From a virus (taxonomy: Duplodnaviria; Caudoviricetes): a DNA stretch of 64,000 bases. The translations under genes were made by a program, and so were the position numbers. The stretch is taken from IMG/VR virus record IMGVR_UViG_3300011116_001229; one strand, given 5' to 3'. Shown piece by piece: positions 1 to 50,270 of this stretch. The notes beneath the pieces are model-generated. The model did no database searches and was not told the DNA's origin. It worked only from the letters and a program-made list of their open reading frames with translations. How positions within the stretch are numbered: position 1 is the stretch's first letter; each line of letters opens with the position of its first letter.

Positions 1-3000
1 TCGAGCCAGTATTCAAATAAACCTCATGACCTTCTGGGTCTGATATGTCATTAAAGTATGAAGATGAAACTAGAGTTGTTATCTTTCCAGTAGACAATGT
101 CCCAGCAACAGCATTACTAATTCTAATGTCAGCACGTTTATATGCGGGGCGCGTCTTTGAGACTGTTAATATAAATTTGTCTTCTGGGTACGCAAGATAG
201 GGGGCCTGTTTTTGTTTACCCAGAGGAAATTTAGAAGCACAGTAGACGTAGCTTCCCGAACCAAGCAAATTAAACTGGGCTTCAAGACTACCCGTTACTG
301 TCTGTCTATATGATGAACCAGTTATATAAAATGGGTTTAATATCGACTGACCATATAAAACGTCTTGAGAAGTTATGAACTCTCCGCCGCTACCCGCACT
401 AAAGCCAGACATGGATCTGCCGAAAGTATCAAATCCTAGGAGATAAGTCAAATTAGTAAGTGGACTTGTTATATTGCTAATCGATGTATATTCAGTATTT
501 AAGAAATTCTCAAAGTCAGTTAATAAGCTACCAGTATTAGCATAGCTTGATGCCTGGAATATCTTAAACATTCCTACGTTTGCACAATTCATCACAGACG
601 CGTCAGCTTTTACCAATACGCTTCCTGTAAAAACTTTCTTTGAATTAACTGTCTGATAGGGGACGTAGTCAGACATGATATTTTGATTGTTATCGTTTCC
701 TGTTAGCGTCACGACGTGTATAAGATCATTTGTAGAACCACTGCCCAAGTCTGTTATCTTGATTAAATTCTGCTTGTCGTCAGAGTGACTAAATGTGGAC
801 TTAAAGACCAAATCTCTAACACTTCCTGTGCCATGATTTCTTTGACAGTACATGGCAACAGTTATAGCAGGACCACCTTCCTCAAACCACGTCAGGGGTG
901 ACATTTTGATTATAGTTCCCCCTCCGCCTGAAGCAGTGTATGCAAAATTGCTTGCCGATGCAATTAAAAATGAAGTCCTGTCATCAAACCATCCATCCCC
1001 CATGCAGAACGGAATTTCAATTACTGCTTTCTCAACTAAGAATGGATCATCTATGGGCAATGTGAAACACTCATCGTCTGACGCTGCGTAATTAGAATTT
1101 CTTTGAATGCTCTTTGCATATTCAGGTGAAAGAATCTGTGTGTGATCTTTTAGGCTGAAGAGCGTCCCTATCTCAGCAGTCGACTGATTTCTTTCGTTGC
1201 CCGTTGTAGACCTGAGAATGTCAAGGTTTCCTGAGATGATGCAATTTCCTTGTGAGTCAAATCCGATCTTATCTTCAAGATACAGTGAGCCATTGCAAGA
1301 CCCGCCAGCATCTGTAGTAGACACCGACAGCTTTTTAAATGAGCTTGTCACATGGTCGCCCAAAGAGCTAGTTGGAATATTCCACTGATTTGCTGTAACA
1401 TTGTAGTAGTACAAGCTGCTCGCGCTTGTGAACATTTTTGTTTTCTTGTCGACATTGAAAGCAAGCTTAAGCTGGCGTTTATTTTCTATGCTTCTTGAAA
1501 AAGAATTAGTGTTCTCACCAAATGCTGATATTGAACCTGTCACGAAGAAAGGATCAGTTAGTCTTCCTTGCGAAGGTGAATCTTCAGAAAATGGTGTCGT
1601 CTTTTCAAAGCGGTGCGTCTCATCACCCATGTAGCTCACTTGCCCTGCAGAAATAATCTTTCTATTTGGGAGCCGTATTCCACCGGAAGAAATAAGATTT
1701 TGTTTTAAATGAACACCGGGATAGCTGGGTTCCACAATTGAAGAGAGAGGCAGTATAGTTGATGCATCAACATTGCTCTGCGTGACGTAATTGATAATTC
1801 GTCTATCGTCAAAACCCGATCGATCAAAATATTGCTTATTATCGTCAGATAATAGATCTGATCTTATCAACTGTCTTCTGAGCTGCGGAGGAGAAAACAT
1901 GATTCTTCCTCCGTGACGCGGCCAATAATTAATTCCTATGTTGACAGCGTAAGACGCGGATACACTCGTCTCTGAGTCTACATCAAAATATGATCCCGTG
2001 TAAAGCGCACCTCCAATGTCACTTGTTTTTCTTGACCCAGACACTACACCAAGAAGTGGAGCAAAGTCTCTGTAGTTCCAATTAGAAGAACCCGAAGCAA
2101 ATATGCCGCATGTTGCGTAAGAAGTAACACTATCGCCCGTTAATTCTATGTCTGCAGCAGATATTCCAGACAGACCGTTATCATAGATGAGACTAGCATC
2201 AGAAGCTTTTATCACAGAGTTCCAGCGAGCAACATCATCAATGGATCCGCTAAAGTTAAATTGTGTAGTCGATTGATTACCATTTGCACCGATGCAAAAT
2301 CTGATACCTGAAGCTTGAATGTCGCTTCCGGTACTTAAAGTTGATTCCACTGTGGACATGGATATGACTTGACCGTCTACATAAACTTTAACTCCTGACG
2401 CCGTTGCACTACCGTCATAGGTCATCACTACATGATGCCACTGATTGTCATTGTAAGTGTCTAGTACTGATCTCAGTCTGAGAGTATTCCCTGAAAATGT
2501 TTGACTTATTTTGACCGATAGATAGCCGCCCTCGAGATAAAGAACGTATCCCTTTGCAAATGAGGTGTCCATTCTAGCGATTATCGGCTTATTGCTTGAA
2601 TTTGCAGCGCCCTTAAACCATGCGCTAAATGAGAACGTATTGGTCACATAATAATTTGCAAATGAGTTATCGTTTGCGTATATGACAGTACTGTTAGATC
2701 CTGAGAAGAAAGCAGCAGTTGATATTTTACCAGCTGCAGGAATCATACTGCCGGGTGTTTTGTATGTGATGTTGTTATTATTCATCGCATCGTCAGCTGT
2801 CGATGTTCCGCTTTCATCAAGCTTCCAAACATTAGTTGGATCAATAGACAGACCAAGAAGTGTGTAGTCTGTCGAATAGTCACTGAGCGGTGCGTAGTTA
2901 AATTCTATCTTGCCGTTCTCATAGATGGCAGTTTCATAAGATAGTTTCTTACCTCTGTACTCATATCCCATCGTCGACCATCTGACTACGAGCGCTTTGC

Positions 3001-3631
3001 CATCATCTGAATCATCTATAACTGCGTATTTCATTCCAAATGAGTGCTCGTTAAATGAGTAGTCTTTTGAGCTAGATCTTCCAAAGAGAAATCTTTCTTT
3101 TTGAGACGCTACTGAGTCATTTGATCCTGAAAAATACTCAATGTAAGAGTCTAGGTCTCTATGGGTCATCAGCTGGCGATCAAACCATGGGGCTAGTAGA
3201 AGGTCGTTGTATTGAAATGATTGCTTGACTGCAGAATTATCATAAGAACTACTTCCGCTAATTATTAGACGGTCATTATAAACTGTGTCTATTGATGCAG
3301 TGCTTGGATAGTTGTTAGGATCTAGCAAAGATAACCAGCCGTGAGGACTGGCGATGAAATCTCGGTATGTGACGCCATTTAAAGTAAAACCAAATCCTAT
3401 TGGTATTATGTTAGAATTTCTTCCGGGACTAACTATGCTTGATGTTAGAGACTCTTGTAAGAACTCTATGTAACCATTGCTGCTTGATAGAATTGGCCCA
3501 AACTGCTTCCATTTGACGGGATTAACTGCGCTAAGTCCTACAGACTTTTTTAGAGGATCAGTCTGAAAAGTAGCGACGTACTTATCGAAGTCTCTCGTGG
3601 GAGGCTGTCTCTTTGACTTAGGGGACGACAT
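1..3631 (-). CDS. Large LamG-domain virion (tail/baseplate) protein, >1210 aa, 3'-truncated by window edge
   Basis: Absent from the ORF track because it runs off the window. ATG at 3631 overlaps the upstream TAA (TAATG). Hand translation MSSPKSKRQPPTRDFDKY... showed no stop in the segments read. LamG/concanavalin-like motifs: WKLDE..., FSFSAWFK, NDNQWHHVVMTYDG, VYVDG, FSGSIDDVARWN. Lies downstream of baseplate genes. Confidence 0.85.
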   Translation of the reverse strand, partial: MSSPKSKRQPPTRDFDKYVATFQTDPLKKSVGLSAVNPVKWKQFGPILSSSNGYIEFLQESLTSSIVSPGRNSNIIPIGFGFTLNGVTYRDFIASPHGWLSLLDPNNYPSTASIDTVYNDRLIISGSSSYDNSAVKQSFQYNDLLLAPWFDRQLMTHRDLDSYIEYFSGSNDSVASQKERFLFGRSSSKDYSFNEHSFGMKYAVIDDSDDGKALVVRWSTMGYEYRGKKLSYETAIYENGKIEFNYAPLSDYSTDYTLLGLSIDPTNVWKLDESGTSTADDAMNNNNITYKTPGSMIPAAGKISTAAFFSGSNSTVIYANDNSFANYYVTNTFSFSAWFKGAANSSNKPIIARMDTSFAKGYVLYLEGGYLSVKISQTFSGNTLRLRSVLDTYNDNQWHHVVMTYDGSATASGVKVYVDGQVISMSTVESTLSTGSDIQASGIRFCIGANGNQSTTQFNFSGSIDDVARWNSVIKASDASLIYDNGLSGISAADIELTGDSVTSYATCGIFASGSSNWNYRDFAPLLGVVSGSRKTSDIGGALYTGSYFDVDSETSVSASYAVNIGINYWPRHGGRIMFSPPQLRRQLIRSDLLSDDNKQYFDRSGFDDRRIINYVTQSNVDASTILPLSSIVEPSYPGVHLKQNLISSGGIRLPNRKIISAGQVSYMGDETHRFEKTTPFSEDSPSQGRLTDPFFVTGSISAFGENTNSFSRSIENKRQLKLAFNVDKKTKMFTSASSLYYYNVTANQWNIPTSSLGDHVTSSFKKLSVSTTDAGGSCNGSLYLEDKIGFDSQGNCIISGNLDILRSTTGNERNQSTAEIGTLFSLKDHTQILSPEYAKSIQRNSNYAASDDECFTLPIDDPFLVEKAVIEIPFCMGDGWFDDRTSFLIASASNFAYTASGGGGTIIKMSPLTWFEEGGPAITVAMYCQRNHGTGSVRDLVFKSTFSHSDDKQNLIKITDLGSGSTNDLIHVVTLTGNDNNQNIMSDYVPYQTVNSKKVFTGSVLVKADASVMNCANVGMFKIFQASSYANTGSLLTDFENFLNTEYTSISNITSPLTNLTYLLGFDTFGRSMSGFSAGSGGEFITSQDVLYGQSILNPFYITGSSYRQTVTGSLEAQFNLLGSGSYVYCASKFPLGKQKQAPYLAYPEDKFILTVSKTRPAYKRADIRISNAVAGTLSTGKITTLVSSSYFNDISDPEGHEVYLNTGS

Positions 3632-4683
3632 TATCTAGATAATCCTCCATAAACAATTGAATCTACACCCTGCGTGGAATTATTATACGAAAAACCAGTT
3701 CGACCTGAAAATTGATTTGCGTTTAAGTAAGTCGTTCCCATCGGCTTAAGCGCTCTGACTGCTGCCAATAAATCATTGTCATAGTCTCTTGTAGATTCTA
3801 ATTCATCACCTCGAGCATACACAACATCTTCAAATGGTTCTATGTAGTTAGTGTCTGTGGGCAAATACGGTATATTAGGACCAACTTCTACAGTACTTGT
3901 GCCTTCATCATTTGACATTGTAATTGGTTCGCTAGCATCAAGAAATATTTCTTTATTGATACCGTTTGGCAAAAAGTCGTACACGCTACTAACTATGTCA
4001 GATGCTTTCTTCACAAGAACATCGCCATTAGAAAAATTTGCTTTTATTCCGTGTGGCTCTGCTGGGAAGTATATGCTGAAGTAAGAGATGATTGGTCTTA
4101 TGGGGAACGGCTCTATGATTCCGTTTAAGACAAAATTTTCTCTCTGATTTGCGTCAGATGTTACAATTGGAAAAGTGATTATCTGCTCAATTAGTTTGTT
4201 ACTGTCTTGCGCCTGTATGAATTCAACAGAATTAAAAAGATTTAGTTCTTGAAAAAAGTCATTGTCAGTTAGATTAACATTTTCATTGAGCCCGAAGGGT
4301 GTAGGATTGATAAAATGACCTGGTGTTCCTGCTGATATTTTTGCCGGGCCTGTAATGTGACGAGGTAGTGTTATTTCCACGCCTTGTCTATATGGATCTA
4401 CCGAACTTGATAGATAGCCTGTTTTGGTTGCTCTATCCTTTGTGACTGATGTGTCAAATGCATTTGCAACCGTATTTGACCCAACAATTTTTTTCAGAGA
4501 AGACTTATCTAAAAATTTTCTATCTCTCAGGATTGATGCCTGAGATAGACTGGAATAATAGTCGATATTGGACTCAATTATAACTGTGTTCGTTCCACCT
4601 TCAATAGACGACTCATTTGTAAAAATTTCAACCCACTGTCCGTTATTGAGATTATCAGGCTCTAGAGGATTCTTTAATTTCAT
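3631..4683 (-). CDS. Hypothetical virion structural protein (350 aa)
   Basis: Long ORF coupled to neighbours within the baseplate operon; no recognisable motif. Confidence 0.7.
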   Translation of the reverse strand: MKLKNPLEPDNLNNGQWVEIFTNESSIEGGTNTVIIESNIDYYSSLSQASILRDRKFLDKSSLKKIVGSNTVANAFDTSVTKDRATKTGYLSSSVDPYRQGVEITLPRHITGPAKISAGTPGHFINPTPFGLNENVNLTDNDFFQELNLFNSVEFIQAQDSNKLIEQIITFPIVTSDANQRENFVLNGIIEPFPIRPIISYFSIYFPAEPHGIKANFSNGDVLVKKASDIVSSVYDFLPNGINKEIFLDASEPITMSNDEGTSTVEVGPNIPYLPTDTNYIEPFEDVVYARGDELESTRDYDNDLLAAVRALKPMGTTYLNANQFSGRTGFSYNNSTQGVDSIVYGGLSR

Positions 4684-4693
4684 TTATGGACTC

Positions 4694-7600
4694 TTACTTG
4701 ATGTTAGATGTAAAATTTAGGCTCAGTGAGTTTTCTTTGCTAGTTTGCTGGTTATTACTTATGTAGTTGTCTCCATGTCTAGCCTCTCTCTTGTGCCGCT
4801 CTAACATATGTGATTCAATCACAAAATTTGTGCCTTTATATCTTGTTTTTCCAGGAATGAGCTGTTCAATAAATGTCGAAATTGAGTTATCAAACCATCT
4901 ATAGAATTCTAAGAATCTTCTAAAATTTAGATTTTCTACTAGTTTATTAAAATAGACATCTCTAAGTGTTTCTAGATCAGGATAGTCTGGTGAGAACATT
5001 AGCTCGGGTCGACCTATTGCATCACCCAACTCTTCAAGACTTGAGAACATTGTTATTATATCTCTATCCAAAGCGTCAACGAGTGAAAATTCTATTGATA
5101 ATCTTGTATCATCTACGGGCACTTCTTTAACAAATGATTCATTAGAAGAATATGCTGGTCCTAATGTTGCAAATGGGTTCTCTGCAAGATTACTTTCATT
5201 AAGCAGACCTCTAATTCTAACTTTGTCGCTAGTTGATGCTTCATCAAAATCAGGTGACAAGTAGCTGTAAGACTCAACGTCGCCAATCACTACAACACTA
5301 GATCCAGATCCAAAATATGATCCTGTAAGATGTAAATTATTATTGCTATGATCAATAAAAATAATTTGACCGCTCGTGTCTGCCTGCTTATCTATTTGTT
5401 TTGCAAAGCTATCAATTCTAAGTTTACCAAATGACCCTGATACTTTTGACGTAAAATTGTAATTTATCTTTGCATCGGAGACACCTGCAGACTTGTAGTT
5501 TCTAACGTGCTCTTTCCATTCAGACTCACTTATTGCTTTTGACCAGAAACGAAGATGAGATACCCATCCTGTGAAGTCAACTGTTCTTGAAGCGCCGTCA
5601 TCTACTTCAAAAGTATTATTTAAGAAAGAGTATGACTGTATGGCAGAAGCAGGAATTGTCTGCTGTGAGCCTATACAAACATAGGATCCTGAAGCATTGA
5701 AGGAGCTTGACAAAAACTCAAATACATTTTTTTCATTCCCAAATCTTTCATTAAAGAAAGTAGATGTTGTGTACGATTCTTCTATGTCTCCATAGTTTGA
5801 TTTTCCGGCTCTCAAAAAATAGCTTGAAGACAAGTAGTTTGATCCAAACTCATCAAACCGTTTTCTACCGAGTGTGACATTCCAGCGCTCGCCATCAAAG
5901 ATACCTTGTCCTGGCATGCTGAGAGACATAGTTAAAAGTGGTGAGCTAGAGTCTATGTCTGTACTTCCTGAAGTGCCAGGTCTTAGATAAGCTATTATCT
6001 TTGGATCTTCTGTTGTAGTTCCATGCACTGCAACAACATTGGCAATTAGCCCAGGTTGAGCGTACGCTGCGCTTCCTGTGACAATTAAGCGCATGAGAGA
6101 CTGACTCTTTGTTTTTATAGTTTCAAGTTTATAAGGCGGAAATTTATAGTGGCATGACAAGGTCCAAGAACCGGATGTTAGTAGACCGTCAGAAGCGTAA
6201 TTAGTACCAATAACTTGTCCGGAATCATTAAGAATAAATTGTCCGCCTGGCAAAGGATAGCCTGGTTCAACTCTTGATGCCGAGAGAGGCGGAGATATTA
6301 CCAAGGATGAGCTGACAAAGTCAACTACAGCAATTGATTCAAGACGCTTATTTCTAGACGCTCCGAGTATATTGGTTGTGTAACCACCGTATTCTCGAAT
6401 TCTGAGACTATTATCAGGGTCAATGCCTACAGACCTCAAGAAAGATCTTATGCTGTGCTGTGTACCTTTTGATCTAATAAAATCGTCTATATTGACAATT
6501 ACTCTTCTAAGAATCTGAGTGTGAACCTTTTTAAAGGCCAGGCCTGTTGAGTACTCTGTCTCAGGGCCGTCGCTATCATCAGTAAATTTATTAATTTCTG
6601 AGTGGTGAAATAAACCTGGGAAGTAAAAACCATAGCTCTTTATGATGTCTTGTAGAAAATTATCAGGCACCGACTCATTCTCGTCATAGCTTACTGTTCT
6701 TAATTTTCCAAATGACTCGACATATAATTTCATGTCGTCAAAGAACTTAGCCCACATGTAAAGAAAAGTCAGTATGACGTGTGTGGATCCAATCTTTCCT
6801 TCGCCGGGAATACCAGAGCCTGAGTAGGCATTGCCGGCATTGCCCCGCTCATTAAAGAAACCGTCTTCTGCAGCACCTTCTAGTAGATAGTGCTTTGGAA
6901 TTAGCTTCACAATATAGTTAGGATTTTCATTATCATAGATAGATGCACTAGAAAGAAGCTGGCTGTTTAAGGATTGCACTTCTTCATATGCTGGGAACAA
7001 AACAATATTAAAATCTCTCTTTTCATTCTTCACGGGATTAAGGGCGTCGGATGAAGAATCTATCCTTAATGACCCGGTAAAATTGCTGACATATGAATGT
7101 AAAGAATTACCAGAGCTATCCAAGACAATTGAATTAACTGAATCAGCTAGCGTGTCTGACAAAAGAGGCGGCGGCTCATTAAATCGATAGTATAGTTTTA
7201 AGTTAGGCGATGCATATACGCCTTTATTTCCATATAACTTTTGTTTATCTAATCCTCTGACATCATGAAAGAGTCTGAGTTCATCAATGGTACCGCTTAA
7301 AGTCTGCAATGGTGTTATTAGCGTGCTGCTGTCAAAAAATGAACTTCCTGAGCCAATATAGAAACTGCTATCATCAATGTCTAGCTTACCAATATTGATT
7401 GATTTTGGACTATTTGATCTTAGACTCTCATTTACGTAAAACTGCAGTGTTACATCAGGGCGACGCTCTTCTCTATTCATTACAACACAAATATGGTTGT
7501 AAGCGCCCTTGGTTAAAACCGCCGAAGTGCTTGTACTTTTTGATCCAGAAGAAACACAAAAGCTAGCCGTGACAAAAGACGTTGATGAATCAGGTTTGAG

Positions 7601-8236
7601 ATAAAGCGTAAATCCATTGGATGAATTTGAGATCTTTTGAAAGATAACTTGACTTGAGTTTGAAATAGCAGGCAGATAGACTTGCGCTTCTAGCGAGAGA
7701 GACCCTGTTGCGCTAGGATTTAATACAGCTTGCCCAGTGACGTTTTTTGATATCTCCGGGTAATAGAATCCTGCACGATCTTTTACTTCAATCCATGTTC
7801 CTAAATTTGCATTATAACCATTCGCAGGATTTTCTCCAACTTGTGTACCCGAGAAGTGAAGCGCACCAGACCACGTTGGAAATTGATCAAAGACATATTT
7901 TTCGAATCCTGACAAGTTGTCAATGAAATTTTGTACTTCTAGCTTAGTACCATCAAATGGAAATTTATTTATTAGTAAGTCGAATGCATCATTGACGTTA
8001 ACTTCAGCCGAAGAGAAAAATGTATGATTTTCAAACTTAGACCAGTCCAGATTAAGTTGCTGAGTACTCTTTAGCGGAGATGAGATTGAATCATATTTAA
8101 ATGAGTCAAACTCTTTAAAGTCAGTTGCACCTTGCTGTTCAACAACGTCGGCTGCAGATATCTGCACAGGCTTAGCGTCACGCAAAATTGACTTTACGAA
8201 AGATGGTGAGCTAAGTGATCCTATTTTAAATGCCAT
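4694..8236 (-). CDS. Baseplate wedge protein (T4 gp7/P2 gpI-like core) with LamG domains, 1180 aa
   Basis: FIRSKGTQHSIRSFLRSVG resembles the gp7/gpI 'KGT' motif. LamG motifs YNHICVV and LSGTIDELRLF, plus a second lectin-like segment FTGWVSHLRFWSKA. Follows the gp6-like gene. Confidence 0.7.
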   Translation of the reverse strand: MAFKIGSLSSPSFVKSILRDAKPVQISAADVVEQQGATDFKEFDSFKYDSISSPLKSTQQLNLDWSKFENHTFFSSAEVNVNDAFDLLINKFPFDGTKLEVQNFIDNLSGFEKYVFDQFPTWSGALHFSGTQVGENPANGYNANLGTWIEVKDRAGFYYPEISKNVTGQAVLNPSATGSLSLEAQVYLPAISNSSQVIFQKISNSSNGFTLYLKPDSSTSFVTASFCVSSGSKSTSTSAVLTKGAYNHICVVMNREERRPDVTLQFYVNESLRSNSPKSINIGKLDIDDSSFYIGSGSSFFDSSTLITPLQTLSGTIDELRLFHDVRGLDKQKLYGNKGVYASPNLKLYYRFNEPPPLLSDTLADSVNSIVLDSSGNSLHSYVSNFTGSLRIDSSSDALNPVKNEKRDFNIVLFPAYEEVQSLNSQLLSSASIYDNENPNYIVKLIPKHYLLEGAAEDGFFNERGNAGNAYSGSGIPGEGKIGSTHVILTFLYMWAKFFDDMKLYVESFGKLRTVSYDENESVPDNFLQDIIKSYGFYFPGLFHHSEINKFTDDSDGPETEYSTGLAFKKVHTQILRRVIVNIDDFIRSKGTQHSIRSFLRSVGIDPDNSLRIREYGGYTTNILGASRNKRLESIAVVDFVSSSLVISPPLSASRVEPGYPLPGGQFILNDSGQVIGTNYASDGLLTSGSWTLSCHYKFPPYKLETIKTKSQSLMRLIVTGSAAYAQPGLIANVVAVHGTTTEDPKIIAYLRPGTSGSTDIDSSSPLLTMSLSMPGQGIFDGERWNVTLGRKRFDEFGSNYLSSSYFLRAGKSNYGDIEESYTTSTFFNERFGNEKNVFEFLSSSFNASGSYVCIGSQQTIPASAIQSYSFLNNTFEVDDGASRTVDFTGWVSHLRFWSKAISESEWKEHVRNYKSAGVSDAKINYNFTSKVSGSFGKLRIDSFAKQIDKQADTSGQIIFIDHSNNNLHLTGSYFGSGSSVVVIGDVESYSYLSPDFDEASTSDKVRIRGLLNESNLAENPFATLGPAYSSNESFVKEVPVDDTRLSIEFSLVDALDRDIITMFSSLEELGDAIGRPELMFSPDYPDLETLRDVYFNKLVENLNFRRFLEFYRWFDNSISTFIEQLIPGKTRYKGTNFVIESHMLERHKREARHGDNYISNNQQTSKENSLSLNFTSNIK

Positions 8237-8252
8237 TGTTTAGTCTTCTCTT

Positions 8253-9743
8253 CTATTGTATTATTTGAAATGTGTTTGATGCATCTTGGTAGATATTTTT
8301 GACACCATTTATTTTAGTCATTATGTCAATCACATATGACCTTCCAACTTCAAGATTAGAAGCACTAAAAGTAAAGAACATTCCTTCAGAATCACTTGAA
8401 ACACGAGTTGAATTTTTCGTTTCATCAAACGGTATTACAGTAGTGCCACTCTCTACTTCACGCACAGAGTAAAATACATTACTTAGAACAATCCCAGCGA
8501 GCTCGACTGGCATTTTAACTAGTTTGATAAATGCATTATTATCATCAAAAATGTTAACTCTTCCAGAAATATCTTGGCCACTAGAGTATCTTTGATCAAT
8601 TCCTGCTACTGTAACTCTGTAGAATTTTTTCTTACTTGACGCAGATGATCTGTCGGGCTTTTTAGCTTCAATCTTGCTCCCTGAGACAAATGCAATATTT
8701 CCATCATTTGATGTCCATACAGGAGTAAATTTTACTGATCCTGATTCAGCTATTCTTGCTGCGATAGTAGCATTTGAAGAGTCGATATTAACTGTAGACG
8801 AGTAGACACCCATTACTGCGTTTGATCCAAGCTTAAATTGCGAACCTGAGAAAGTTAGTGAATATCCCCCGGTTTCTGTGACTAATTTAAGTTTTACACA
8901 GTTAGCACCTGTGAGTGACGTTGAAGCTGAAACTAAATTATTTAGATCACCCTTTATGTAATTATAGAGGTTGATCTTACAGTCAGTGTCGAATGTCAAA
9001 TTTTGTGTATCATCAGAGATTGAGTCATTAAATTTAAAGATTAACTTGGGGCGCTTTATTTCATCATATGCATGACGACTTGCAAAACGCTTCACAAAGT
9101 ACGTATTTGTGTCTGTCTCAAGAGAGCCGCTGTAAGAAATTCTAAACCCTCTATCGGGTAATTCACCCGTTAAGGTTGCTGATACAATTGAAGTTACATC
9201 AATCAATAGGCTCTCTGTTCCAACAGGAAATTCTTGCTTTGCTTCAGTTGACTGAATGCTCACAGAGCTTGTGATGAAATCACATGCTTGAGTTGCACCA
9301 CCTCCGGTACCACAACCAGAAGAATTCCAGAGTATACCTCTTGATGAAGAAAGCCAATTAGCTGCATCAATATCTGTGTAATACACAAGATCTTTACCAA
9401 GTCCTTCTTCAAATGATGCTGAGAGGGGAAAGACGCTCACAGTAAAATTCTGTGGAGTTGGTTGACCACCATATACGTCAGTTAAAGATAGCTGACATTG
9501 AAAAGACGCGTCATTAATGTCTACGCTGCCTGACTTCCACAAGTTGTCAATGTCTGATAGATCAAACTGAACTAGAATTCTAGATAATTCATCTGTTACT
9601 CCTGATGAATCGGGTGCCAAATCATGCAATTTAAATAAATCTAGCGTGCCCGCTAGACCAACGTTTCCTGACACTTTAGATTTCGCACTAATTACTTTGT
9701 TAGTAATGTATGTGTCTTTTTTAGCTTTGATGCTTTTATACAT
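8253..9743 (-). CDS. DNRLRE/CBM96-like domain virion protein (496 aa)
   Basis: N-terminal KKDTYIT...NVG...SRILVQFDLS pattern typical of DNRLRE-type domains; located in the baseplate operon. Confidence 0.6.
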   Translation of the reverse strand: MYKSIKAKKDTYITNKVISAKSKVSGNVGLAGTLDLFKLHDLAPDSSGVTDELSRILVQFDLSDIDNLWKSGSVDINDASFQCQLSLTDVYGGQPTPQNFTVSVFPLSASFEEGLGKDLVYYTDIDAANWLSSSRGILWNSSGCGTGGGATQACDFITSSVSIQSTEAKQEFPVGTESLLIDVTSIVSATLTGELPDRGFRISYSGSLETDTNTYFVKRFASRHAYDEIKRPKLIFKFNDSISDDTQNLTFDTDCKINLYNYIKGDLNNLVSASTSLTGANCVKLKLVTETGGYSLTFSGSQFKLGSNAVMGVYSSTVNIDSSNATIAARIAESGSVKFTPVWTSNDGNIAFVSGSKIEAKKPDRSSASSKKKFYRVTVAGIDQRYSSGQDISGRVNIFDDNNAFIKLVKMPVELAGIVLSNVFYSVREVESGTTVIPFDETKNSTRVSSDSEGMFFTFSASNLEVGRSYVIDIMTKINGVKNIYQDASNTFQIIQ

Positions 9744-11607
9744 TGGACACCGCTTTACCTATGATATTAATGTCAGGGAATCTAACCTCAAAGATACCAC
9801 CCTCAGGCGGATAGATAATTTGGTTTCTTGTGTTGCCCTTGACATCAAAGACAGTCTCTGAATAAACTCTGTTCTTCACAATTCCGTATAAATTTCTTAT
9901 AGTGACAGAGTCAACACCAATTACGCCCTGATGTGAGTAAATCGTACTTATGATATCAGATTTTACTATTGGCTGATTTATGTGGAAGTTTGTTGAATTA
10001 AACTGTGTCTGCAGAGATGCGATGATGGTTTTTATTAGGGTCGTCTTGTTGTATGATGGATCTGCAACAACTTGAAAAAATATTTCAAGATCAATAATCT
10101 CAGCATCAAGAATATCAATAGCATCTGATATCATTCGATAAGAATTTAAGTAACGTTTAAGATTAATTTTGAGAGTATCGGGTGATGGAATTAAAACACC
10201 TGATGGCGTTCTAGAGATAACGTGAAGTCTCGATGCGAGAGGATTATTGGGATTGTTAGAAACAGAAGCTCTAAACACTCTGCCAAAATTTGATGGCATT
10301 GTGTACACTCTTGCAAGCAAGTCTTCTTTGGTTACTATTCTCTCTTGCGCACTCTTTAATGCAGGAACTAGAGCTAGAATTTCATCATTTGTAGGCGCAT
10401 CTTCACCACCTGTTGCTGGGTCTGGGTTGAAGACTTCTATGCCATTCTTGACTTGAGCTTGCAGCTCAATTGATGGATTCTCTGGGAATTGAACTTCTAT
10501 AAAGTTGATTGTTTTAATGCTGCCTGGCGGCACATTGTGTAATAAGCCACCTCCGTGTCTGTACACTATAGTCAAGGATGTATTTGCCGGACCGACGCCC
10601 AATGTGGATGTCTGAAGAAGGCGCTGAGGATTGACAGCTCGACGTGAAAAAGTTTGTGTATACCTTAGGGGGATTGCAAACTCTGAAGGATCCGGTATGG
10701 CATCATCATCGAGCGAGTCAGCAGTACCTCCGCCAAAGGTTAAAGTAACAGTTCTATCTGTTATTGAAACTTGTTTTGTATATCTGTAAGGTGCAGGAAT
10801 AACTTTTAATGAGTCTTTAACCAAGCTGCTATCAACGGCGGATGTGTTCAGCGTATTCTTGTAGACGACGTCATGCGTTAGGTTCTCAACTTCATAATAG
10901 ATATTTCCCTTACCGTCAATCACCGACAGTATAATTGAGACATCGGGCAATGATAATGTGATAGTCTTAAAAGGTTGAAATTCACCAAACTGAAATGTTT
11001 CCGTGGCTTGAACACCTGACAAGCACAGACCCGAGGCTTTTAATATTCTTGTTGCGACAGTTCCTGCAATTCTTCTACCAATGCTCACTTCAACTGCGGG
11101 GTTTAATTCTATAATACCAGTTTCAGAATTTGACTGCCAGAAATCCACGTTTTCTAGTAGAGTAAATCGGGTTCCGTTGTCTGCTTGCAAGACTGTATTC
11201 GCAACAATTGTTGGTAAAAGATCAGTTCGTGCAGGAGGTGCGTCTGTACCGTCATCAACTACAGGTACTTCAATATAGAAATCAACTTGAACAATAGAGG
11301 GTGATGCACCCGTTATCTGTAAACCGGCGTTCTTTATGATTTGCTCAATATTTTTTGCCTCGACGACGGTGTCAAAATTGAGCTCACCATAGAGATGATC
11401 TAAGTAGAAGGATAAGTTATCACCGACATAAGCAGCCATATCTAGGAACAGACCGCCCACAGATGCTTCAGAAAAATCTTTAATTTTATCAGGGTAATAT
11501 TGCCTGGCGTATTCTAGAAGCACTCTTCTGAAACCATCGAAGTCCCTCGCTAAGTAGTTTCTCTGCCGGACAGATTTGAGAGCTTGCGTATTATTGATAA
11601 GAGCCAT
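9736..11607 (-). CDS. Baseplate wedge subunit, T4 gp6/baseplate-J-like
   Basis: NYLARDFDGFRR...DFSEASVGGLFLDMAAYVGDNLSFYLD N-terminus and TGGED...AQERIVTKEDL, both characteristic of gp6-like proteins. Confidence 0.9.
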   Translation of the reverse strand: MALINNTQALKSVRQRNYLARDFDGFRRVLLEYARQYYPDKIKDFSEASVGGLFLDMAAYVGDNLSFYLDHLYGELNFDTVVEAKNIEQIIKNAGLQITGASPSIVQVDFYIEVPVVDDGTDAPPARTDLLPTIVANTVLQADNGTRFTLLENVDFWQSNSETGIIELNPAVEVSIGRRIAGTVATRILKASGLCLSGVQATETFQFGEFQPFKTITLSLPDVSIILSVIDGKGNIYYEVENLTHDVVYKNTLNTSAVDSSLVKDSLKVIPAPYRYTKQVSITDRTVTLTFGGGTADSLDDDAIPDPSEFAIPLRYTQTFSRRAVNPQRLLQTSTLGVGPANTSLTIVYRHGGGLLHNVPPGSIKTINFIEVQFPENPSIELQAQVKNGIEVFNPDPATGGEDAPTNDEILALVPALKSAQERIVTKEDLLARVYTMPSNFGRVFRASVSNNPNNPLASRLHVISRTPSGVLIPSPDTLKINLKRYLNSYRMISDAIDILDAEIIDLEIFFQVVADPSYNKTTLIKTIIASLQTQFNSTNFHINQPIVKSDIISTIYSHQGVIGVDSVTIRNLYGIVKNRVYSETVFDVKGNTRNQIIYPPEGGIFEVRFPDINIIGKAVSNV

Positions 11608-11645
11608 TTTTTACCTGAAATTTCTCAACATAATTAGAACTGACT

Positions 11646-12116
11646 TTAGATAACATACAAAACAATTTGTAGTGATCTATCATTGTCCTCAATCGATGGT
11701 ATTCTGTATGTGATATTGATTTTTATCACTCCTGTGTTCTTGTTCTCAGTTCTATCAATTGAAGACTCGAAAGTATTTAGAGTCACGTAGGGCATCCATT
11801 TATCAACAGCAGCTCTAATCCTTGTGATGGCTTCTGTGTCAAAATCTTCTTGACTAACAAACTCTGTGGTGAGAGGCTTCAGATTGGCACCAAAGTCATA
11901 TAGCCCCAAGCGTTCACCCCAGTTTGTTAGAAGTAGGTTTTTTAAATTGTCAGCGAACTGATCCGACAAAGAAAAGTTCATCGACAAGATGCCTTCACTT
12001 GAATTACCGAGCTGCAGGGGTGTCTTTATTCCAAATGGAATCTGAGAAGCTGTGAGCACTTCTTCATCTTGACTCTGACGAGTCTTTCCTACATTTTTAA
12101 AACTGTAGACTGCCAT
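11646..12116 (-). CDS. Baseplate wedge/sheath-initiator protein, gp25/GPW-like
   Basis: NLKNLLLTNWGERL..YDFGANL...IRAAVDKWMPYV is the gp25 family signature; adjacent to the gp6-like gene. Confidence 0.9.
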   Translation of the reverse strand: MAVYSFKNVGKTRQSQDEEVLTASQIPFGIKTPLQLGNSSEGILSMNFSLSDQFADNLKNLLLTNWGERLGLYDFGANLKPLTTEFVSQEDFDTEAITRIRAAVDKWMPYVTLNTFESSIDRTENKNTGVIKINITYRIPSIEDNDRSLQIVLYVI

Positions 12117-17507: not shown

Positions 17508-17539
17508 TTTAAAAACAATCGTATATTAGTTAGTTTTCA

Positions 17540-17836
17540 TTAATTTTCTTCATTATTATCAAAATTTTTGATTATTGCATAAACTGCATCTCTGCAGTCA
17601 GCTATATCTTTTACTAGATCTTTGACAACAGGATCATCAAAAAAGACTTCTGTCTTTGATTTAGCTTCAAGGCGCTTGTGCTTCTCTTCGAGTATTTTTA
17701 AGGATATGTCGAGCTGTTCTTCTAGATCATCAAGCTTGTCTATGATCTGCAGGCTGTTTTTCGTGGATCTAACTAGAAGCGACGTCGATCCAGCAAACAA
17801 GCACGCAAAAACGCAAGCGAGAACAACTGAAATCAT
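17540..17836 (-). CDS. Small membrane-anchored coiled-coil protein
   Basis: Hydrophobic N-terminus (MISVVLACVFACLFAG) followed by heptad-like charged helix. Confidence 0.6.
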   Translation of the reverse strand: MISVVLACVFACLFAGSTSLLVRSTKNSLQIIDKLDDLEEQLDISLKILEEKHKRLEAKSKTEVFFDDPVVKDLVKDIADCRDAVYAIIKNFDNNEEN

Positions 17837-19032
17837 AAAATAAAGCTCAATTCTTCGTCATACATCTTTGAGATAGTAGAAAAATTGTATTGTTGCTTGA
17901 TCTTGGCTGAGAGCTCTGTTGCCCACTCTTTAGGCAGCGAGCTAGATGACTTAAACTTCAATATTTTCTTCTTAAAGTCTTCTTCAACCGGGTTGGCCCA
18001 TCTGGCATTTTGAACAAAAATTTCATTATCTATTCTTGATGGATGCACATTACCAAGATTAAAATCGACACCAACGAATTTGCCCTTTGACATAAAATCA
18101 AGATGCCCAGACCAGTTTGTGGCAATAATTGGTAGACCACTCGCTGCTGCTTCTAGAATCGGCAGTCCGTAGCCTTCGCCTCTTGTTAAAGTCACTAATG
18201 CTTTTATCTGTGGATGTCGATAAAGAGATGCCATCTCAGCATCAGACATTTCACCGTGAAGAAGATAGATCTTGGGTTCTTTTTTCTTCTTAATTTCTAG
18301 CAAGACTGACTTGATAGTGTTCTCAACAATCTGTCTGTCTATCTTAGTATTTCGACCCATGTTTGTCTTAATAACTAGTCCTACATCGTTGTCTTTATTA
18401 AATGTTTCGCAAAACCACTTTATAGTATAGAAGATATTTTTTCTATCATTTTCTGCGTTCTTTCCTGTTATCTGTCCGATCATTAAAAAGTTGAACTGGG
18501 TCTGGAATTTAATATCATCGATGCGTGTAGACGCTGGTTCGAGTATCTCATCTGGGAAAGATTCGGGTATAACTCTAACTTCAGTTGTTAGTTGACCAGA
18601 GCTGCTAAGGACGCTATGACAGAACTTCGAGGGTACAATTACTTTAGTCATTCTATTGCATGCATGCACCCAAGCAGGATTGCAGATATCTGTTTCAACA
18701 ACTGCAGATATGCCAATATTGGTGCTAGACATGCTTGTGTCCCATTCATTTGGTAGCTGAACTTGAACAGTTGCATCGTACTTTTGACCCGTTGGGTCAG
18801 CGGTCTTTTCCATAATTCTACCGATCAAACCCCCAGACAAATCTTTGTTAATTAACCAGGGAGTTGAACCCCAGGGCAAGGCCTGAACGTGAACGTCGAG
18901 ATTAGGCTTTGAAAGGAGCCAGCGAGCAATTTGTCGTGAATGAACTCCATAACCAGACTGAGTCAGTACGGGAGCTCTGAGCAGGACTTTTTTTCTGCTA
19001 CTCATGTTGACAAAAAAGTTGTTATCAAACAT
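17833..19032 (-). CDS. Glycosyltransferase, GT-B fold (GT4-like)
   Basis: TQSGYGVHSR N-terminus; TRGEGYGLPILEAAASGLPIIATNWSGHLDF nucleotide-sugar binding motif. Confidence 0.9.
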   Translation of the reverse strand: MFDNNFFVNMSSRKKVLLRAPVLTQSGYGVHSRQIARWLLSKPNLDVHVQALPWGSTPWLINKDLSGGLIGRIMEKTADPTGQKYDATVQVQLPNEWDTSMSSTNIGISAVVETDICNPAWVHACNRMTKVIVPSKFCHSVLSSSGQLTTEVRVIPESFPDEILEPASTRIDDIKFQTQFNFLMIGQITGKNAENDRKNIFYTIKWFCETFNKDNDVGLVIKTNMGRNTKIDRQIVENTIKSVLLEIKKKKEPKIYLLHGEMSDAEMASLYRHPQIKALVTLTRGEGYGLPILEAAASGLPIIATNWSGHLDFMSKGKFVGVDFNLGNVHPSRIDNEIFVQNARWANPVEEDFKKKILKFKSSSSLPKEWATELSAKIKQQYNFSTISKMYDEELSFIL

Positions 19033-20284
19033 CTAACACCTTCATTTCCCAAGTTGGTGGTTTTGATTCTGGGCTTTTCCAGCTATCGATTAATTTGCTC
19101 AGTGACTTGTCCCATTCAGACACAACATCTTCCATAATATAGTCTCTTTGTGCGTGCTTCATGGCTCTTAGACCGACTTCTCTTCTCTTGTCCGGACCCC
19201 ATGTGAACATCTCCATAAATGCTTTAGAGAGCGTCTCATGTGAGATAAAATCTTCATAGATGTAAGGTATCATAAGGTTTCCTACCATAGACCTTACCTC
19301 AGGATCCAAGGCAATACCATAGTGCTCTCCTGTTTTGTAGTCTTCAACTTGTCGAGTAAGACCACCAGTCTTTATCGAGATCACAGGCTTTCCACACATC
19401 TTTGCTTCAAGAATAGGCAGTCCAAATCCTTCATTTGATGATCTGTTTACGACAGTGTCGCACATATTGTAAAGAATATTCATGTCTTCAAAAGCGATTC
19501 TATCCTTAGAAAAGACGACGCTTTCACGAATTCCAAGCATATCAACTACGCTGTGCAAATTTGTTCCCTCTGGATCGAGAGGATCGCAGTGCATCACAAT
19601 AGAAGCTTTTTGATGACCGTGCTTTTCTTGCAAATCTTTCATAAACATCTTCCAAGACACTAAGATGTCGCTAGTCATCTTCCTTCTTGCATTTCTAGAA
19701 ACATAAAGCGCAGTGAAATGATCGAGTCGCTCGGGCCCTAAAAGCTTCTTCTTAAACTGTTGAACTTGATCATGTGGTAGTTCTTTATAGAGTTCGGTCG
19801 GAACAGCATGAGGAATATAGTTTGTCTTATGCGGAAAGCGCTCTTTGACCATCTCGTATGTAGGATAATTAATGCAGTTGATCAAGTCAGTTGAGTCATA
19901 TAATACGCTATTGTAGTCAGGCCACGGTGGATTATCCCAAAGATGCCAGTATGCGATAGGACAAATTTGATTAATCTCGTCTGCCATCTCCCAGACCCAT
20001 ATGAAGAATCGAGGGTCTGTGAACAGAAACATCGCATCGGGTCTTAGCTGTGCTAAAGTTTTTCTTAAAAGATTTTTATCACCAAATCCATCCGTTGGCT
20101 TGACAATAAAGTCAGGATTAACAACAACAGTTTCGTAATTGTCGTGCTTTACAGCTCCTCCAAAGCATTTGAAGCTATATTTTCCTGTATTGACTAGGCC
20201 ATTTATCAACCACCTAGCTTGAGTACCCACTCCTGAAGTAGAAAGTGGATGGTCTGATAGCATTAAAATTGTCTTTTTTTGCAT
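19025..20284 (-). CDS. Glycosyltransferase, GT-B fold (GT4-like)
   Basis: STSGVGTQ N-terminus; SRNARRK; SSNEGFGLPILEAKMCGKPVI motif. Confidence 0.9.
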   Translation of the reverse strand: MQKKTILMLSDHPLSTSGVGTQARWLINGLVNTGKYSFKCFGGAVKHDNYETVVVNPDFIVKPTDGFGDKNLLRKTLAQLRPDAMFLFTDPRFFIWVWEMADEINQICPIAYWHLWDNPPWPDYNSVLYDSTDLINCINYPTYEMVKERFPHKTNYIPHAVPTELYKELPHDQVQQFKKKLLGPERLDHFTALYVSRNARRKMTSDILVSWKMFMKDLQEKHGHQKASIVMHCDPLDPEGTNLHSVVDMLGIRESVVFSKDRIAFEDMNILYNMCDTVVNRSSNEGFGLPILEAKMCGKPVISIKTGGLTRQVEDYKTGEHYGIALDPEVRSMVGNLMIPYIYEDFISHETLSKAFMEMFTWGPDKRREVGLRAMKHAQRDYIMEDVVSEWDKSLSKLIDSWKSPESKPPTWEMKVLDV

Positions 20285-20291
20285 TGGTCGT

Positions 20292-20321
20292 ATATTACCA
20301 ACTCAGGCTAAGTTGTAACAA
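20292..20321 (-). promoter_or_regulatory. Putative sigma70-like promoter (TTGTTA-18-TAATAT, extended TG), 7 nt before ATG
   Basis: Minus strand reads ttgtta caacttagcctgagttgg taatat acgacca ATG. No SD motif. The spacer contains an imperfect inverted repeat (caactta/tgagttg). Confidence 0.45.
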
Positions 20322-20323
20322 AA

Positions 20324-21139
20324 TTAAGTGCAGTGCTCTGTGTTTTTATACTCACACCACATGCATGCGTCTCTATTCTTTATGGCTACTCCTCGCTTCA
20401 CAGAAGTCAACATATTGCTCACTACCTTGAGAGAACGTTTAATTGGTACTTCACCTAGAGGAACTGTGAATAATTCGCAATGTTCACCAGCTTTTGCTGA
20501 TTTCTTCAACAGCACGAACCCGCAACGAACATTCTTAAACGGTACATCAGGGTGCTTTTGACACCAATAATTCTTGTAAAGCGCCAACTGTGATTTCACC
20601 ATTTCATCTGAACGCTTTTCTCTGAACCAACCGCGCACTGTAGTCTTCCAGTCAAGAATCCAGTAGAGTTCTTCTCCGCGCTTGCCTTTGGTTTTAATGA
20701 CACCGTCAATGAATCCCTTAAAAGCATGTGGGTGATTCTCTACTGCTTCGTAGAGCTGGTGTTCTGCATCGACTACTTCCCATTGGGGGAATATTTCATC
20801 AAGAAAATTTGGAACTTCTGCAAGAATTAGAGCTGCTTCTTCCTTTGCTTTTGCGAGCGATGCAGGAGTAAAGTCTGGGTTGTCAGGATGTGATGCCCAT
20901 GCTTTTTCCATGTGCTCATATGCAATCTGAGGTTTCATCTCACGAGTTAAAAGATACTGTTCACAAGATGCATGTACTGCAGTTCCAAAGTCAAGAACCG
21001 GGGAGGGCTTTGACAGATCAATCTTTTTGACGTGCGTTAAATTGTGTCGATATGAGCACTCTTTCCAAAGCTTAACTTCGGAAAAAGAGACGTGAGGTTT
21101 TCCTGTAGGAAGAACGTCAAATGACGTATTTTCTTGCAT
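20324..21139 (-). CDS. PD-(D/E)XK nuclease, Cas4/AddB-like with Fe-S cysteines
   Basis: SFSEV..WKEC, FGTAVH, GFIDGV, ILDWKT, QLALY and C-terminal CMWCEY...HC (1+3 Cys arrangement). Confidence 0.85.
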   Translation of the reverse strand: MQENTSFDVLPTGKPHVSFSEVKLWKECSYRHNLTHVKKIDLSKPSPVLDFGTAVHASCEQYLLTREMKPQIAYEHMEKAWASHPDNPDFTPASLAKAKEEAALILAEVPNFLDEIFPQWEVVDAEHQLYEAVENHPHAFKGFIDGVIKTKGKRGEELYWILDWKTTVRGWFREKRSDEMVKSQLALYKNYWCQKHPDVPFKNVRCGFVLLKKSAKAGEHCELFTVPLGEVPIKRSLKVVSNMLTSVKRGVAIKNRDACMWCEYKNTEHCT

Positions 21140-24572: not shown

Positions 24573-25586
24573 CTATCTTACAATTTCGGCAGTATCTTTT
24601 CTTACTTCGTTACGCCAATATTGTAATAAATCTAACATCGTTTTTTCAAAACTAATCTCAGGTTGCCAACCTGTGTGGCTCTTAAACTTATTTGTGTCAG
24701 GTATCTGAAGATCAGCATCAATGGGCCTAAGCCTATCCGGATCTACGACAACTTGTATGTCTTTAACTGTAGAATTTTTAAGAAGAAAATTTAACATGTC
24801 TCTTACAGAACACGTATAAGAGCCACCAATGTTGTAGTACTCGCCTGCGACAGGATTATTAGTCACAAGCATGTAATATGCTCTAACTGCATCACGAACA
24901 TCTGCCCATGTTCTAAGAGAATCTAGATTACCTACTTTTAAAATAGGCGGTATCTTACCGGCTTCTATTAGCGCAATTTGCTTAGCAAATGAAGATTCAG
25001 CAAAAACATCACCTCTGCGAGGTCCTGTATGTGTAAACATTCTAGTCGTCATGACTCTCATTCCATATGCTTCAGCATAAAATCTTCCAATTAAATCAGT
25101 GCCAACTTTGGAAATTGCGTACGGTGAAGCTGGGTGAAAGTTAACATCTTCGTGAATTGGCAGTTTATCTTTTGAAACTCTTCCAAAGACTTCGGAGCTT
25201 GCGCAGACATGTACGGTAATTTTTTTAAAGTCAATTTCTGAGAGTCTAATTGCCTCTAGCAGGGCGCATGTTCCAATTATGTTGGTCTGCAAAGTCTCAA
25301 GTGGAGAGTCAAAACTAGTCTTTGGATAACTTTGAGCCGCTAAATGAAACACATAGTCTGGTTTGACTTTTTTTATAAGTGACATTAGGCTTGCAAAATC
25401 ATTAAGGTCGGCATTGTGTAGTTCTATCCGATCTTTATCATTTATTCTTCGTGAGAGATGCTCAATATTTTTTGCTGGTTCGAACCATCTCATCATGCCG
25501 TGAATTTCCCAGTCCGTGTTCTCAAGCAAAAAGTCTGCTAAATGTGAGCCGACCATGCCAGTTATGCCTGTAATAATTGCTTTCAA
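24573..25586 (-). CDS. dmhA: GDP-D-glycero-D-manno-heptose 4,6-dehydratase-like (DmhA/WcbK family)
   Basis: HGMMRW, FHLAAQSYPKTSFDSPLETLQTNIIGT, HVCASSEVFG, RMFTHTGPRRGDVF, AKQIALIEAG and RLRPIDADLQ closely match my recollection of Yersinia/Campylobacter DmhA rather than Gmd. Confidence 0.7.
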   Translation of the reverse strand: MKAIITGITGMVGSHLADFLLENTDWEIHGMMRWFEPAKNIEHLSRRINDKDRIELHNADLNDFASLMSLIKKVKPDYVFHLAAQSYPKTSFDSPLETLQTNIIGTCALLEAIRLSEIDFKKITVHVCASSEVFGRVSKDKLPIHEDVNFHPASPYAISKVGTDLIGRFYAEAYGMRVMTTRMFTHTGPRRGDVFAESSFAKQIALIEAGKIPPILKVGNLDSLRTWADVRDAVRAYYMLVTNNPVAGEYYNIGGSYTCSVRDMLNFLLKNSTVKDIQVVVDPDRLRPIDADLQIPDTNKFKSHTGWQPEISFEKTMLDLLQYWRNEVRKDTAEIVR

Positions 25587-48200: not shown

Positions 48201-48288
48201 AACCTCTTAATAAGCAGTTAGATAGCTTAATAGCTTTTACTAAGCTAGATAGTTATAGACAAAAATAACTGTTCTTAGAGCTTTGTAT

Positions 48289-48816: not shown

Positions 48817-48851
48817 TTATAAACTAAACTGAGACATGTAATAATTGACGC

Positions 48852-49979: not shown

Positions 49980-49981
49980 CC

Positions 49982-50009: not shown

Positions 50010-50015
50010 GTGGTC

Positions 50016-50267: not shown

Positions 50268-50270
50268 ATT

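Follow-up and report, generated by a model that had tools for sequence, protein, structure and literature searches.

GtfA and GtfB, a cytoplasmic pair of proteins with the glycosyltransferase family 4 (GT4) fold, O-GlcNAcylate serine residues within S-x-S-type sequences (x being a small residue) of serine-rich repeat adhesins. Chloroviruses encode soluble glycosyltransferases (GTs) which build the glycan of the virion surface without the secretory machinery of the host; their glycans are N-linked, occupy atypical sites and decorate the capsid protein of a eukaryotic virus. In type II' hairpins and in ST- and Asx-turns, Gly followed by Ser, Thr, Asn or Asp is placed at the tip, and Ser, Thr, Asp and Asn are interchangeable before the turn. 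These enzymatic and structural precedents are relevant to the 64,000-nucleotide stretch of DNA analysed here (IMG/VR record IMGVR_UViG_3300011116_001229; hereafter the window), which stems from an uncultured jumbo phage with a T4-like baseplate block on the minus strand. Its outer virion proteins are rich in the tripeptide [ST]GS, i.e., Ser or Thr followed by Gly and Ser, and two overlapping GT4 genes are encoded close to the baseplate block. We focus on the relation between the tripeptide and this GT4 pair, for which the former may serve as an O-glycosylation tag.

Virion O-glycosylation by phage-encoded GTs has been described for mycobacteriophages (Freeman et al., 2023, via PMC12619734). 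According to the latter source, the mycobacteriophage GTs are encoded near structural genes, as are those of the present locus, and the virion glycans are produced cytoplasmically with no export route, as would be the case here; the glycans are reported from the C-terminal ends of capsid and tail-tube subunits, whereas the candidate tripeptides of the window are dispersed inside folded baseplate and fibre domains. In the TibC/TibA and Aah/AIDA-I systems, a cytoplasmic enzyme that can be superimposed on the GT-B fold hyperglycosylates many Ser residues, and the modelled acceptor, Ser-176, is located on a loop of the TibA beta-helix (PMC4358343). The window resembles these autotransporter heptosyltransferase systems in encoding a PfkB kinase and a cytidylyltransferase-like protein, a combination consistent with heptose activation. 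Unlike the TibC dodecamers, however, the phage enzymes belong to the GT4 family, and the candidate acceptors are beta-sandwiches rather than a beta-helix. A TibC/Aah-type enzyme did not turn up in the Pfam scans, which included no search aimed at TibC. As for GtfA/GtfB, GtfB is non-catalytic whereas both phage GT4s carry the E-x7-E motif, the sequence similarity to GtfA is negligible, and the substrates of the known pair are long disordered repeats, in contrast to the isolated tripeptides in folded domains found here. Membership of the locus in the mycobacteriophage, TibC/Aah or GtfA/GtfB system is not established.

An order-specific motif excess in the outer virion proteins

In four proteins of the window, [ST]GS is found five to six times above chance, expectations being derived, unless stated otherwise, from composition-preserving shuffles (2000 per open reading frame, ORF). 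The features concerned are as follows (aa, amino acids).

2-3631, minus strand: edge ORF of >1210 aa, its C-terminus past the window end; outer baseplate/fibre protein with a LamG_3 domain (PF13385, E=9e-17); 17 [ST]GS vs. 2.88 expected
3631-4683, minus strand: 350-aa outer baseplate protein; 0 [ST]GS here vs. 0.37 expected, orthologues enriched
4694-8236, minus strand: 1180-aa wedge-periphery protein (hereafter wedge protein) with two ConA/LamG-like beta-sandwiches at aa ~120-325 and ~627-995 (AlphaFold2, Foldseek); 12 [ST]GS vs. 2.09 expected
8253-9743, minus strand: 496-aa all-beta protein with a weak DNRLRE match and a CBM/Ig-like fold; 5 [ST]GS vs. 1.02 expected (p=0.004)
9736-12116, minus strand: gp6-like protein (623 aa) and gp25 (156 aa) of the inner baseplate; 0 [ST]GS, internal negative controls
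17833-19032, minus strand: GT4a, a GT-B (GT4) glycosyltransferase (PF00534) with intact E-x7-E; candidate modifying enzyme
19025-20284, minus strand: GT4b, the second GT4 glycosyltransferase (PF00534), with intact E-x7-E and an 8-nt overlap with GT4a
20324-21139, minus strand: PD-(D/E)XK nuclease, conserved neighbour of the GT4 pair
21171-48200, minus strand: sugar-nucleotide/glycosyltransferase island of ~27 kb, soluble-type enzymes; content differs among relatives
55711-57240, plus strand: 509-aa protein without a Pfam family match, upstream of two large Ser-rich proteins that lack the motif; 3 [ST]GS vs. 0.60 expected (p=0.02)

A preliminary description of the window had counted about 16, 12, 5 and 3 sites by eye in the edge ORF and the 1180-, 496- and 509-aa proteins, and had put the expectation from composition several-fold lower; both statements are borne out. 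Among the remaining 51 ORFs, the single [ST]GS is the GLESGSD of a B12 radical-SAM enzyme (25583-27448), and the gp6-like, gp25 and gp5-like ORFs contain none, likewise as first described. With regard to the assignments, PF13385 (Laminin_G_3) scores 62 bits in the edge ORF and 47.1 bits in the wedge protein (curated cut-off 27.6), gp25 (11646-12116) is identified by Pfam, and the 623-aa protein (9736-11607), which has no Pfam match, shares 32% identity with the protein annotated as baseplate wedge in Flavobacterium phage immuto.

Pooled over the four proteins, SGS (22 vs. 4.4 expected) and TGS (15 vs. 2.3) are the two strongest common tripeptides. The excess depends on residue order, as GSS, SSG, GST, GTS and TGT reach only 0-1.4 times their expectation. 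Of two further tripeptides initially said to recur, SAS is indeed raised (10 vs. 3.0, p=0.001), while the excess of SSS is not significant. The residue preceding a site is hydrophobic in 54% of cases, compared with a background of 34%, which agrees with the frequent hydrophobic neighbours noted by eye. Furthermore, the 37 sites are encoded by 34 distinct 9-mers and both Ser codon families are used. This variety argues for selection at the protein level and not for a DNA repeat, as had been proposed.

An inflation of the counts by Ser/Gly-rich composition, DNA repeats or collagen-like triplets could be suspected, since the four proteins are Ser-rich (10-14% Ser) and one ORF of a related locus owes 48 TGS to collagen-like Gly-X-Y repeats. 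This explanation retains next to no probability, having been refuted by three tests: shuffled sequences of the same composition yield five to six times fewer sites, permuted tripeptides are not enriched, and the sites hardly ever share a 9-mer. In addition, the excess holds at guanine-cytosine (GC) contents of 29-65%, the Ser-rich 838-aa and 1419-aa neighbours of the 509-aa protein have no site, and collagen-like repeats are absent from the proteins of the window.

Outside the four named proteins, the ORFs of the window contain one [ST]GS where ~9.9 would be expected (Poisson P ~5e-4). An avoidance of the motif in non-target proteins was considered and dropped, as near-complete relatives show 1.1-1.35 times the expectation outside their virion module.

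Age and spread of the motif among relatives

The excess is old. Homologues of the wedge protein number >1,200 in metagenomes by a word-indexed search, and an exhaustive profile search matched 3,378 cluster representatives. In 120 homologues (51-100% identity) a mean of 9.3 [ST]GS is found against 1.7 expected, and in 149 more distant representatives the ratio is still 4.6-5.9. Wedge positions 230, 296, 688, 720 and 933 carry the motif in at least 108 of the 120 homologues, position 849 in 83 and position 977 in 60; overall, five to seven alignment columns are conserved in >90% of homologues.

The distinction between outer and inner proteins is maintained in the 233 related IMG/VR and metagenome loci examined, which cover GC contents of 29-65%. 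Orthologues of the 1180-aa protein are enriched 5.6-5.7 times, those of the 496-aa protein 6.2-6.4 times, those of the 350-aa protein 3.5-3.9 times and those of the edge ORF 3.5-4.0 times, whereas the orthologues of gp6 (0.14-0.30 times) and gp25 (0.0-0.4 times) are depleted. In 752 distinct outer-protein sequences, which are related and therefore do not provide independent events, SGS and TGS lie two-fold above a dipeptide (first-order Markov) expectation, and DGS and NGS reach only ~0.55 times theirs. A minority of full-length wedge homologues (P0245, P0243, P0250, P0265, P0202 and others) have only 0-3 sites; scans of IMG/VR and metagenomes for relatives of these low-motif proteins gave matches of at most 42% identity only, all of them motif-rich. 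A relative both GT-less and close enough for a contrast was not found, and GT co-occurrence was compared across distant phages only.

The motif was counted for each ORF of three near-complete relatives (G002, G003 and G004; estimated completeness 93-99%, 318-340 kb, GC 34-59%). In each of them the wedge orthologue ranks first or second in [ST]GS enrichment, and the whole virion module reaches 3.2-3.7 times the expectation. Further enriched ORFs encode a second LamG protein (8 vs. 1.2 expected), the N-terminal part of a gp23-type capsid protein (4 vs. 0.8-0.9), one of two sheath paralogues (5 vs. 0.95) and a neck/adaptor protein (4 vs. 0.23). The preliminary description had assigned the motif to lectin-domain virion proteins. 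It is present in LamG sandwiches, but it extends to the CBM/Ig-like 496-aa protein and to the sheath, capsid and neck proteins of the relatives. Between the three genomes, some sites are gained or lost at variable loop positions.

The two sheath paralogues of these genomes are adjacent (e.g., L267:16551-19568), ~1000 aa each and 31% identical to one another. The gp23-type capsid protein comprises 624-642 aa, of which the Pfam Gp23 match spans only the last ~260 residues. In another relative, a ~1000-aa collagen-like Gly-X-Y protein with GNT-GST-GPQ repeats is encoded downstream of the baseplate genes (L075:20448-23456, plus strand); the 48 TGS of this ORF were set aside on account of their origin in a triplet repeat rather than a dispersed motif.

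Site anatomy and substitution pattern

In the AlphaFold2 model of the wedge protein (mean predicted local distance difference test score, pLDDT, 69; beta domains ~85-93), helical regions join and flank two sandwiches. Foldseek matches the latter to laminin LG4-5 pairs, neurexin LNS, PAPP-A and pentraxins (E down to 1e-8); at the sequence level, the first LamG domain matched no solved structure. Ten of the 12 sites lie inside the sandwiches and none in the helical termini. Nine are wholly coil and one occupies a hairpin tip, with sites 177, 688 and 849 directly preceding a strand and position 230 forming a two-residue hairpin (strand 221-230, GS, strand 233-242). Wedge positions 314 and 933 and position 461 of the edge ORF fit F-x-G-x-I/L-D, which we take to be a LamG strand consensus. 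The model of the 496-aa protein (pLDDT 77; predicted template modelling score, pTM, 0.77) is all-beta and CBM/Ig-like. Here, site 71 follows a helix, sites 205 and 334 lie at the ends of helices, site 299 occupies the middle of a strand and site 354 belongs to a four-residue hairpin loop. Gly at the first turn position between two adjacent strands with a polar residue next to it, as in a type II' hairpin, is modelled at wedge position 230 but not at positions 299, 334 and 205 of the 496-aa protein. Of the surface-turn placement suggested at the outset, the turns agree with most sites, which are modelled in loops and turns of lectin-like sandwiches, but not with some mid-strand and helix-end sites of the 496-aa protein. 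Given such heterogeneous contexts across two models, the motif is not bound to one fold or local structure.

Alignment columns describe the true pattern as [ST]-[G>A>S]-[S>T>A]. In the main clade, conservation is higher for the flanking Ser/Thr residues than for the Gly between them, which gives way to Ala or Ser in the alternates SAS, TAS and TSS, and position 688 reads S/T-x-S in ~121 of 130 sequences. The first position accepts either Ser or Thr and is the better conserved of the two hydroxyl positions, and the third tolerates Ala. The 496-aa protein has ~10 semi-conserved motif columns, in which SAS, TAS, TSS, SGT and SGA occur as alternates.

The GT4 pair and its genomic surroundings

Both enzymes match PF00534 (Glycos_transf_1; GT4a 32.1 bits, GT4b 55.4 bits, cut-off 26.4), and the E-x7-E motif of the C-terminal Rossmann domain is present as GEGYGLPILEA in GT4a and NEGFGLPILEA in GT4b. 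The best solved relative of GT4b is the chlorovirus GT B736L (PDB 3oy2), a weak match (E=3e-7 over ~70 residues), and GT4a has a faint match to NCBIfam GtfA (E=0.0085).

A recurrent gene order, namely PD-(D/E)XK nuclease, GT4b, GT4a, 279-aa, 118-aa, 527-aa, (gp5), gp25, gp6, 496-aa, wedge, 350-aa and edge, is kept in nearly every related locus with a clearly reaching flank, a few rearranged loci being the exceptions, and in nearly every such locus the GT4 pair adjoins the baseplate module. In all five of the genomes G001-G005, a sugar/GT island of ~20-25 kb with differing content flanks this module. The conserved element travelling with the motif is, as judged from these loci, the GT4 pair at 17833-20284 and not the particular island of the window. 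Of the link to an adjacent GT system that had been suggested, the co-occurrence with the GT4 pair stands, and all relatives that were examined combine the motif with phage glycosyltransferases; the island at 21-48 kb varies in content.

Variants of this arrangement were also observed. Unrelated small ORFs replace the 279-aa and 118-aa genes in locus L205, and an unmatched 329-aa ORF is found at the GT4a position in L228; the motif excess is kept in both. Loci of 29-65% GC keep the baseplate and GT4 module in synteny, a spread which implies a very broad predicted host range for one phage lineage.

The glycosyltransferase types detected by Pfam in the window are GT4, GT2, GT6, GT11 and HtrL-type, and the Wzx, Wzy and priming-transferase families gave no Pfam match in the island. 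Since only soluble enzymes are encoded and no export genes were detected, a cytoplasmic protein is the most economical candidate acceptor of the GT4 pair. The pair may also act on host glycans. With a nuclease adjoining it, DNA is a further possible acceptor. By liquid chromatography-mass spectrometry, however, dG in the DNA of immuto is fully replaced by fdPreQ1 while dA, dC and dT are normal, and no glycosylated nucleoside was reported (PMC10516641), which makes DNA an unlikely acceptor in immuto, though in this phage only.

Cultured phages with and without the pair

Among 50,697 phage records, the full GT4 pair was found only in Flavobacterium phage immuto and Microcystis phage Mel-JY01. 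Rhodothermus phage RM378 encodes GT4b and, in the next ORF, a weak GT4a match, and the uncultured record LR756508 has GT4b only. The [ST]GS motif is in excess in all three cultured phages. The genome of immuto holds 117 sites (47.6 expected), of which 53 (11.5 expected) lie at 90-100 kb, where tail spike and fibre genes are annotated directly after gp6; its sheath has 7 against 1.28 expected. Mel-JY01 has 105 (37.8 expected), including 56 (9.1 expected) at 160-190 kb, and RM378 has 53 (18.9 expected), including 25 (4.8 expected) at 60-80 kb.

These three phages and three uncultured relatives were compared as pair-bearing genomes with the pair-less phages T4, KVP40, Syn9, P-SSM2, HTVC008M and Ma-LMM01. 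The six controls have whole-genome ratios of 0.64-1.48 and at most one ORF per genome at p<1e-3, and the baseplate and fibre proteins of T4 contain 7 [ST]GS against 9.7 expected. In the ten highest-expectation ORFs per genome, the ratio is 3.1-4.1 with the pair (n=6) and 0.75-2.0 without it (n=6), a complete separation that corresponds to p ~0.002 in a two-sided rank test if the genomes were independent. The proposed parallel between motif density and GT loci is thus seen between the two sets of six, although these phages are distant and their sheaths are enriched about three-fold in both sets. A comparison controlled for fold is accordingly mixed, as sheaths do not differ by pair status but capsid proteins do (14 vs. 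4.2 expected with the pair, 1 vs. 1.95 without).

Apart from the GT4 pair, immuto and Mel-JY01 have gp6, gp25, the 279-aa protein and the nuclease in common with the window. A tblastn search of the wedge protein against cultured phages gave no match at 1e-5, and BLASTP against immuto and Mel-JY01 found marginal similarity only. In immuto, the nuclease-GT4b-GT4a trio (48008-51927; L351:18801-22720; GT pair KNV73_gp181 and gp180) is followed by a sugar island of ~8 kb and lies at a distance of ~30 kb from the baseplate genes, so that the trio and the baseplate are not physically linked in all phages. The nuclease is also present in Mel-JY01, in which an IMP dehydrogenase gene lies between it and the GT4 pair, and the GT4b orthologue of this phage (83441-84932; L352:442-1933) is annotated as two ORFs of 190 and 302 aa, i.e., a split gene or a frameshift. 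In the pair-less P-SSM2, a 597-aa ORF (18953-20746; L374) with 15 [ST]GS against 3.8 expected may encode a repeat protein.

Weighing the explanations

The reading that we favour, while giving it somewhat less than an even chance, is that [ST]GS is an acceptor or recognition tag for O-glycosylation by the GT4 pair. The pattern [ST]-[G>A>S]-[S>T>A], mostly with hydrophobic flanks, would mark the outward-facing beta-sandwich proteins of the virion with a short signal at their surface, the pair (presumably of the retaining type) would use it as a cytoplasmic O-glycosylation acceptor or recognition site, and supply and extension of the glycan would fall to the adjacent sugar island of variable content. 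In this scheme, we infer both that the GTs act on protein and that the Ser/Thr residues of the motif are the acceptors. The excess across LamG, CBM/Ig-like, sheath, capsid and neck proteins, and in varied local contexts, is more readily explained by a sequence signal than by one structural element. Applied to an aquatic clade of T4-like and jumbo phages including immuto, Mel-JY01 and RM378, the scheme would mean that [ST]-[G/A/S]-S is O-glycosylated by the GT4 pair on all outward-facing virion proteins, resulting in a sugar coat made by the phage itself, the outer sugars of which differ according to an exchangeable biosynthesis island; this wider proposal is put forward with slightly more reserve still.

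Several observations weigh against glycosylation by the pair, a reading which is plausible and unproven. Five of the six pair-bearing genomes have baseplate genes in common with the window and therefore belong to one deep lineage, so that pair and lineage are confounded and the association of pair and motif is inseparable from shared ancestry; only RM378 is largely independent of this lineage, and its GT4a match is weak. Tail sheaths are enriched about three-fold both with the pair (31 vs. 9.2 expected) and without it (13 vs. 4.7), and the structural proteins of HTVC008M reach 2.2 times the expectation despite the lack of a pair. Part of the excess is thus a general habit of beta-rich virion proteins in aquatic T4-like phages, and only an additional, approximately two-fold excess goes with the pair or the lineage. 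Furthermore, the non-target proteins of pair-bearing relatives do not avoid the motif, and a literature search found no glycosyltransferase with an S-G-S sequon. Many sites are deeply conserved at Gly turn positions. Low-motif homologues retain Gly at the conserved columns and carry D, N, K or T in its flanks (DGD, NGD, DGT, NGL), which is the pattern expected for Asx/ST-type turns and for hairpins with Gly followed by Ser, Thr, Asn or Asp.

These last observations lead directly to a structural explanation, which we consider nearly as likely as a glycosylation sequon. Here, [ST]-G-S would represent lineage-specific tight turns or strand-entry caps (type II' Gly-Ser hairpins, ST-turns), spread by domain duplication and kept by purifying selection, and the GT pair would do something else and have no more than the lineage in common with the motif. 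The confinement of most wedge sites to the sandwiches rather than the helical termini, the Gly-then-Ser hairpin at position 230, the LamG strand matches at wedge 314 and 933 and edge 461, the strongly conserved columns and the turn-compatible substitutes of low-motif homologues all agree with it, as do the enriched sheaths and HTVC008M structural proteins of pair-less phages. However, turn motifs explain neither the mid-strand and helix-cap sites among the heterogeneous predicted contexts nor the replacement of the central Gly by Ala or Ser with the flanks retained, which is unusual where a turn needs positive phi. DGS and NGS, though normally good turn formers, are depleted, and some motifs are turned over between relatives at variable loop positions. 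The restriction to the outer virion proteins of one lineage is not accounted for either, and no excess is seen in the beta-rich fibres of T4 or in the proteomes of Syn9, KVP40 and Ma-LMM01.

The tag could also be read by a factor other than the GT4 pair, such as a different modification enzyme, an assembly chaperone or a quality-control protease. Signal-like behaviour (order specificity, occurrence across folds, retained flanks, depletion in inner proteins) would agree with such a reader, a ClpP-like protease is encoded in the window, and the GTs are connected with the motif by correlation only. On the other hand, co-variation with the motif of the kind seen for the GT4 pair is not observed for any candidate reader, and we know of no modification or chaperone system that reads S-G-S. 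We regard this alternative as improbable.

If the motif were a glycosylation sequon, protein glycosylation in tailed phages would, as far as we know, be assigned a short sequence rule for the first time. This rule would hold for a mostly uncultured aquatic lineage of very large size (>3,300 wedge-protein clusters at 50% identity), and it would account for the presence of 20-30 kb islands with soluble sugar enzymes next to the baseplate genes. Glycosylated virion surfaces would become predictable from sequence, with consequences for host recognition, protection against grazers and enzymes, and glyco-engineering. Should its role be purely structural, the motif would remain useful for recognising one family of beta-sandwich modules in phages, and its case would warn against taking motif enrichment as a modification signal. 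The three cultured carriers of the pair, immuto, Mel-JY01 and RM378, make the question directly testable.

Further observations

Downstream of the 509-aa protein, the 838-aa and >1419-aa proteins (57221-63999, plus strand; 11% Ser) have 0 [ST]GS against 1.8 expected and no Pfam family match. Their counterparts in G004 (800 and 1321 aa, encoded after the fibre genes) have 0 [ST]GS as well.

RM378 is the reference genome of the 'Far-T4' phages (PMC4360716). The lineage of the window may overlap with this group or with the 'moraphages' (PMC12619734).

In the window, GT4a and the 279-aa gene lie ~325 nt apart (17508-17832), and a gap of ~280-320 nt is found there in most related loci; it may be the site of a late promoter or of a small ORF.

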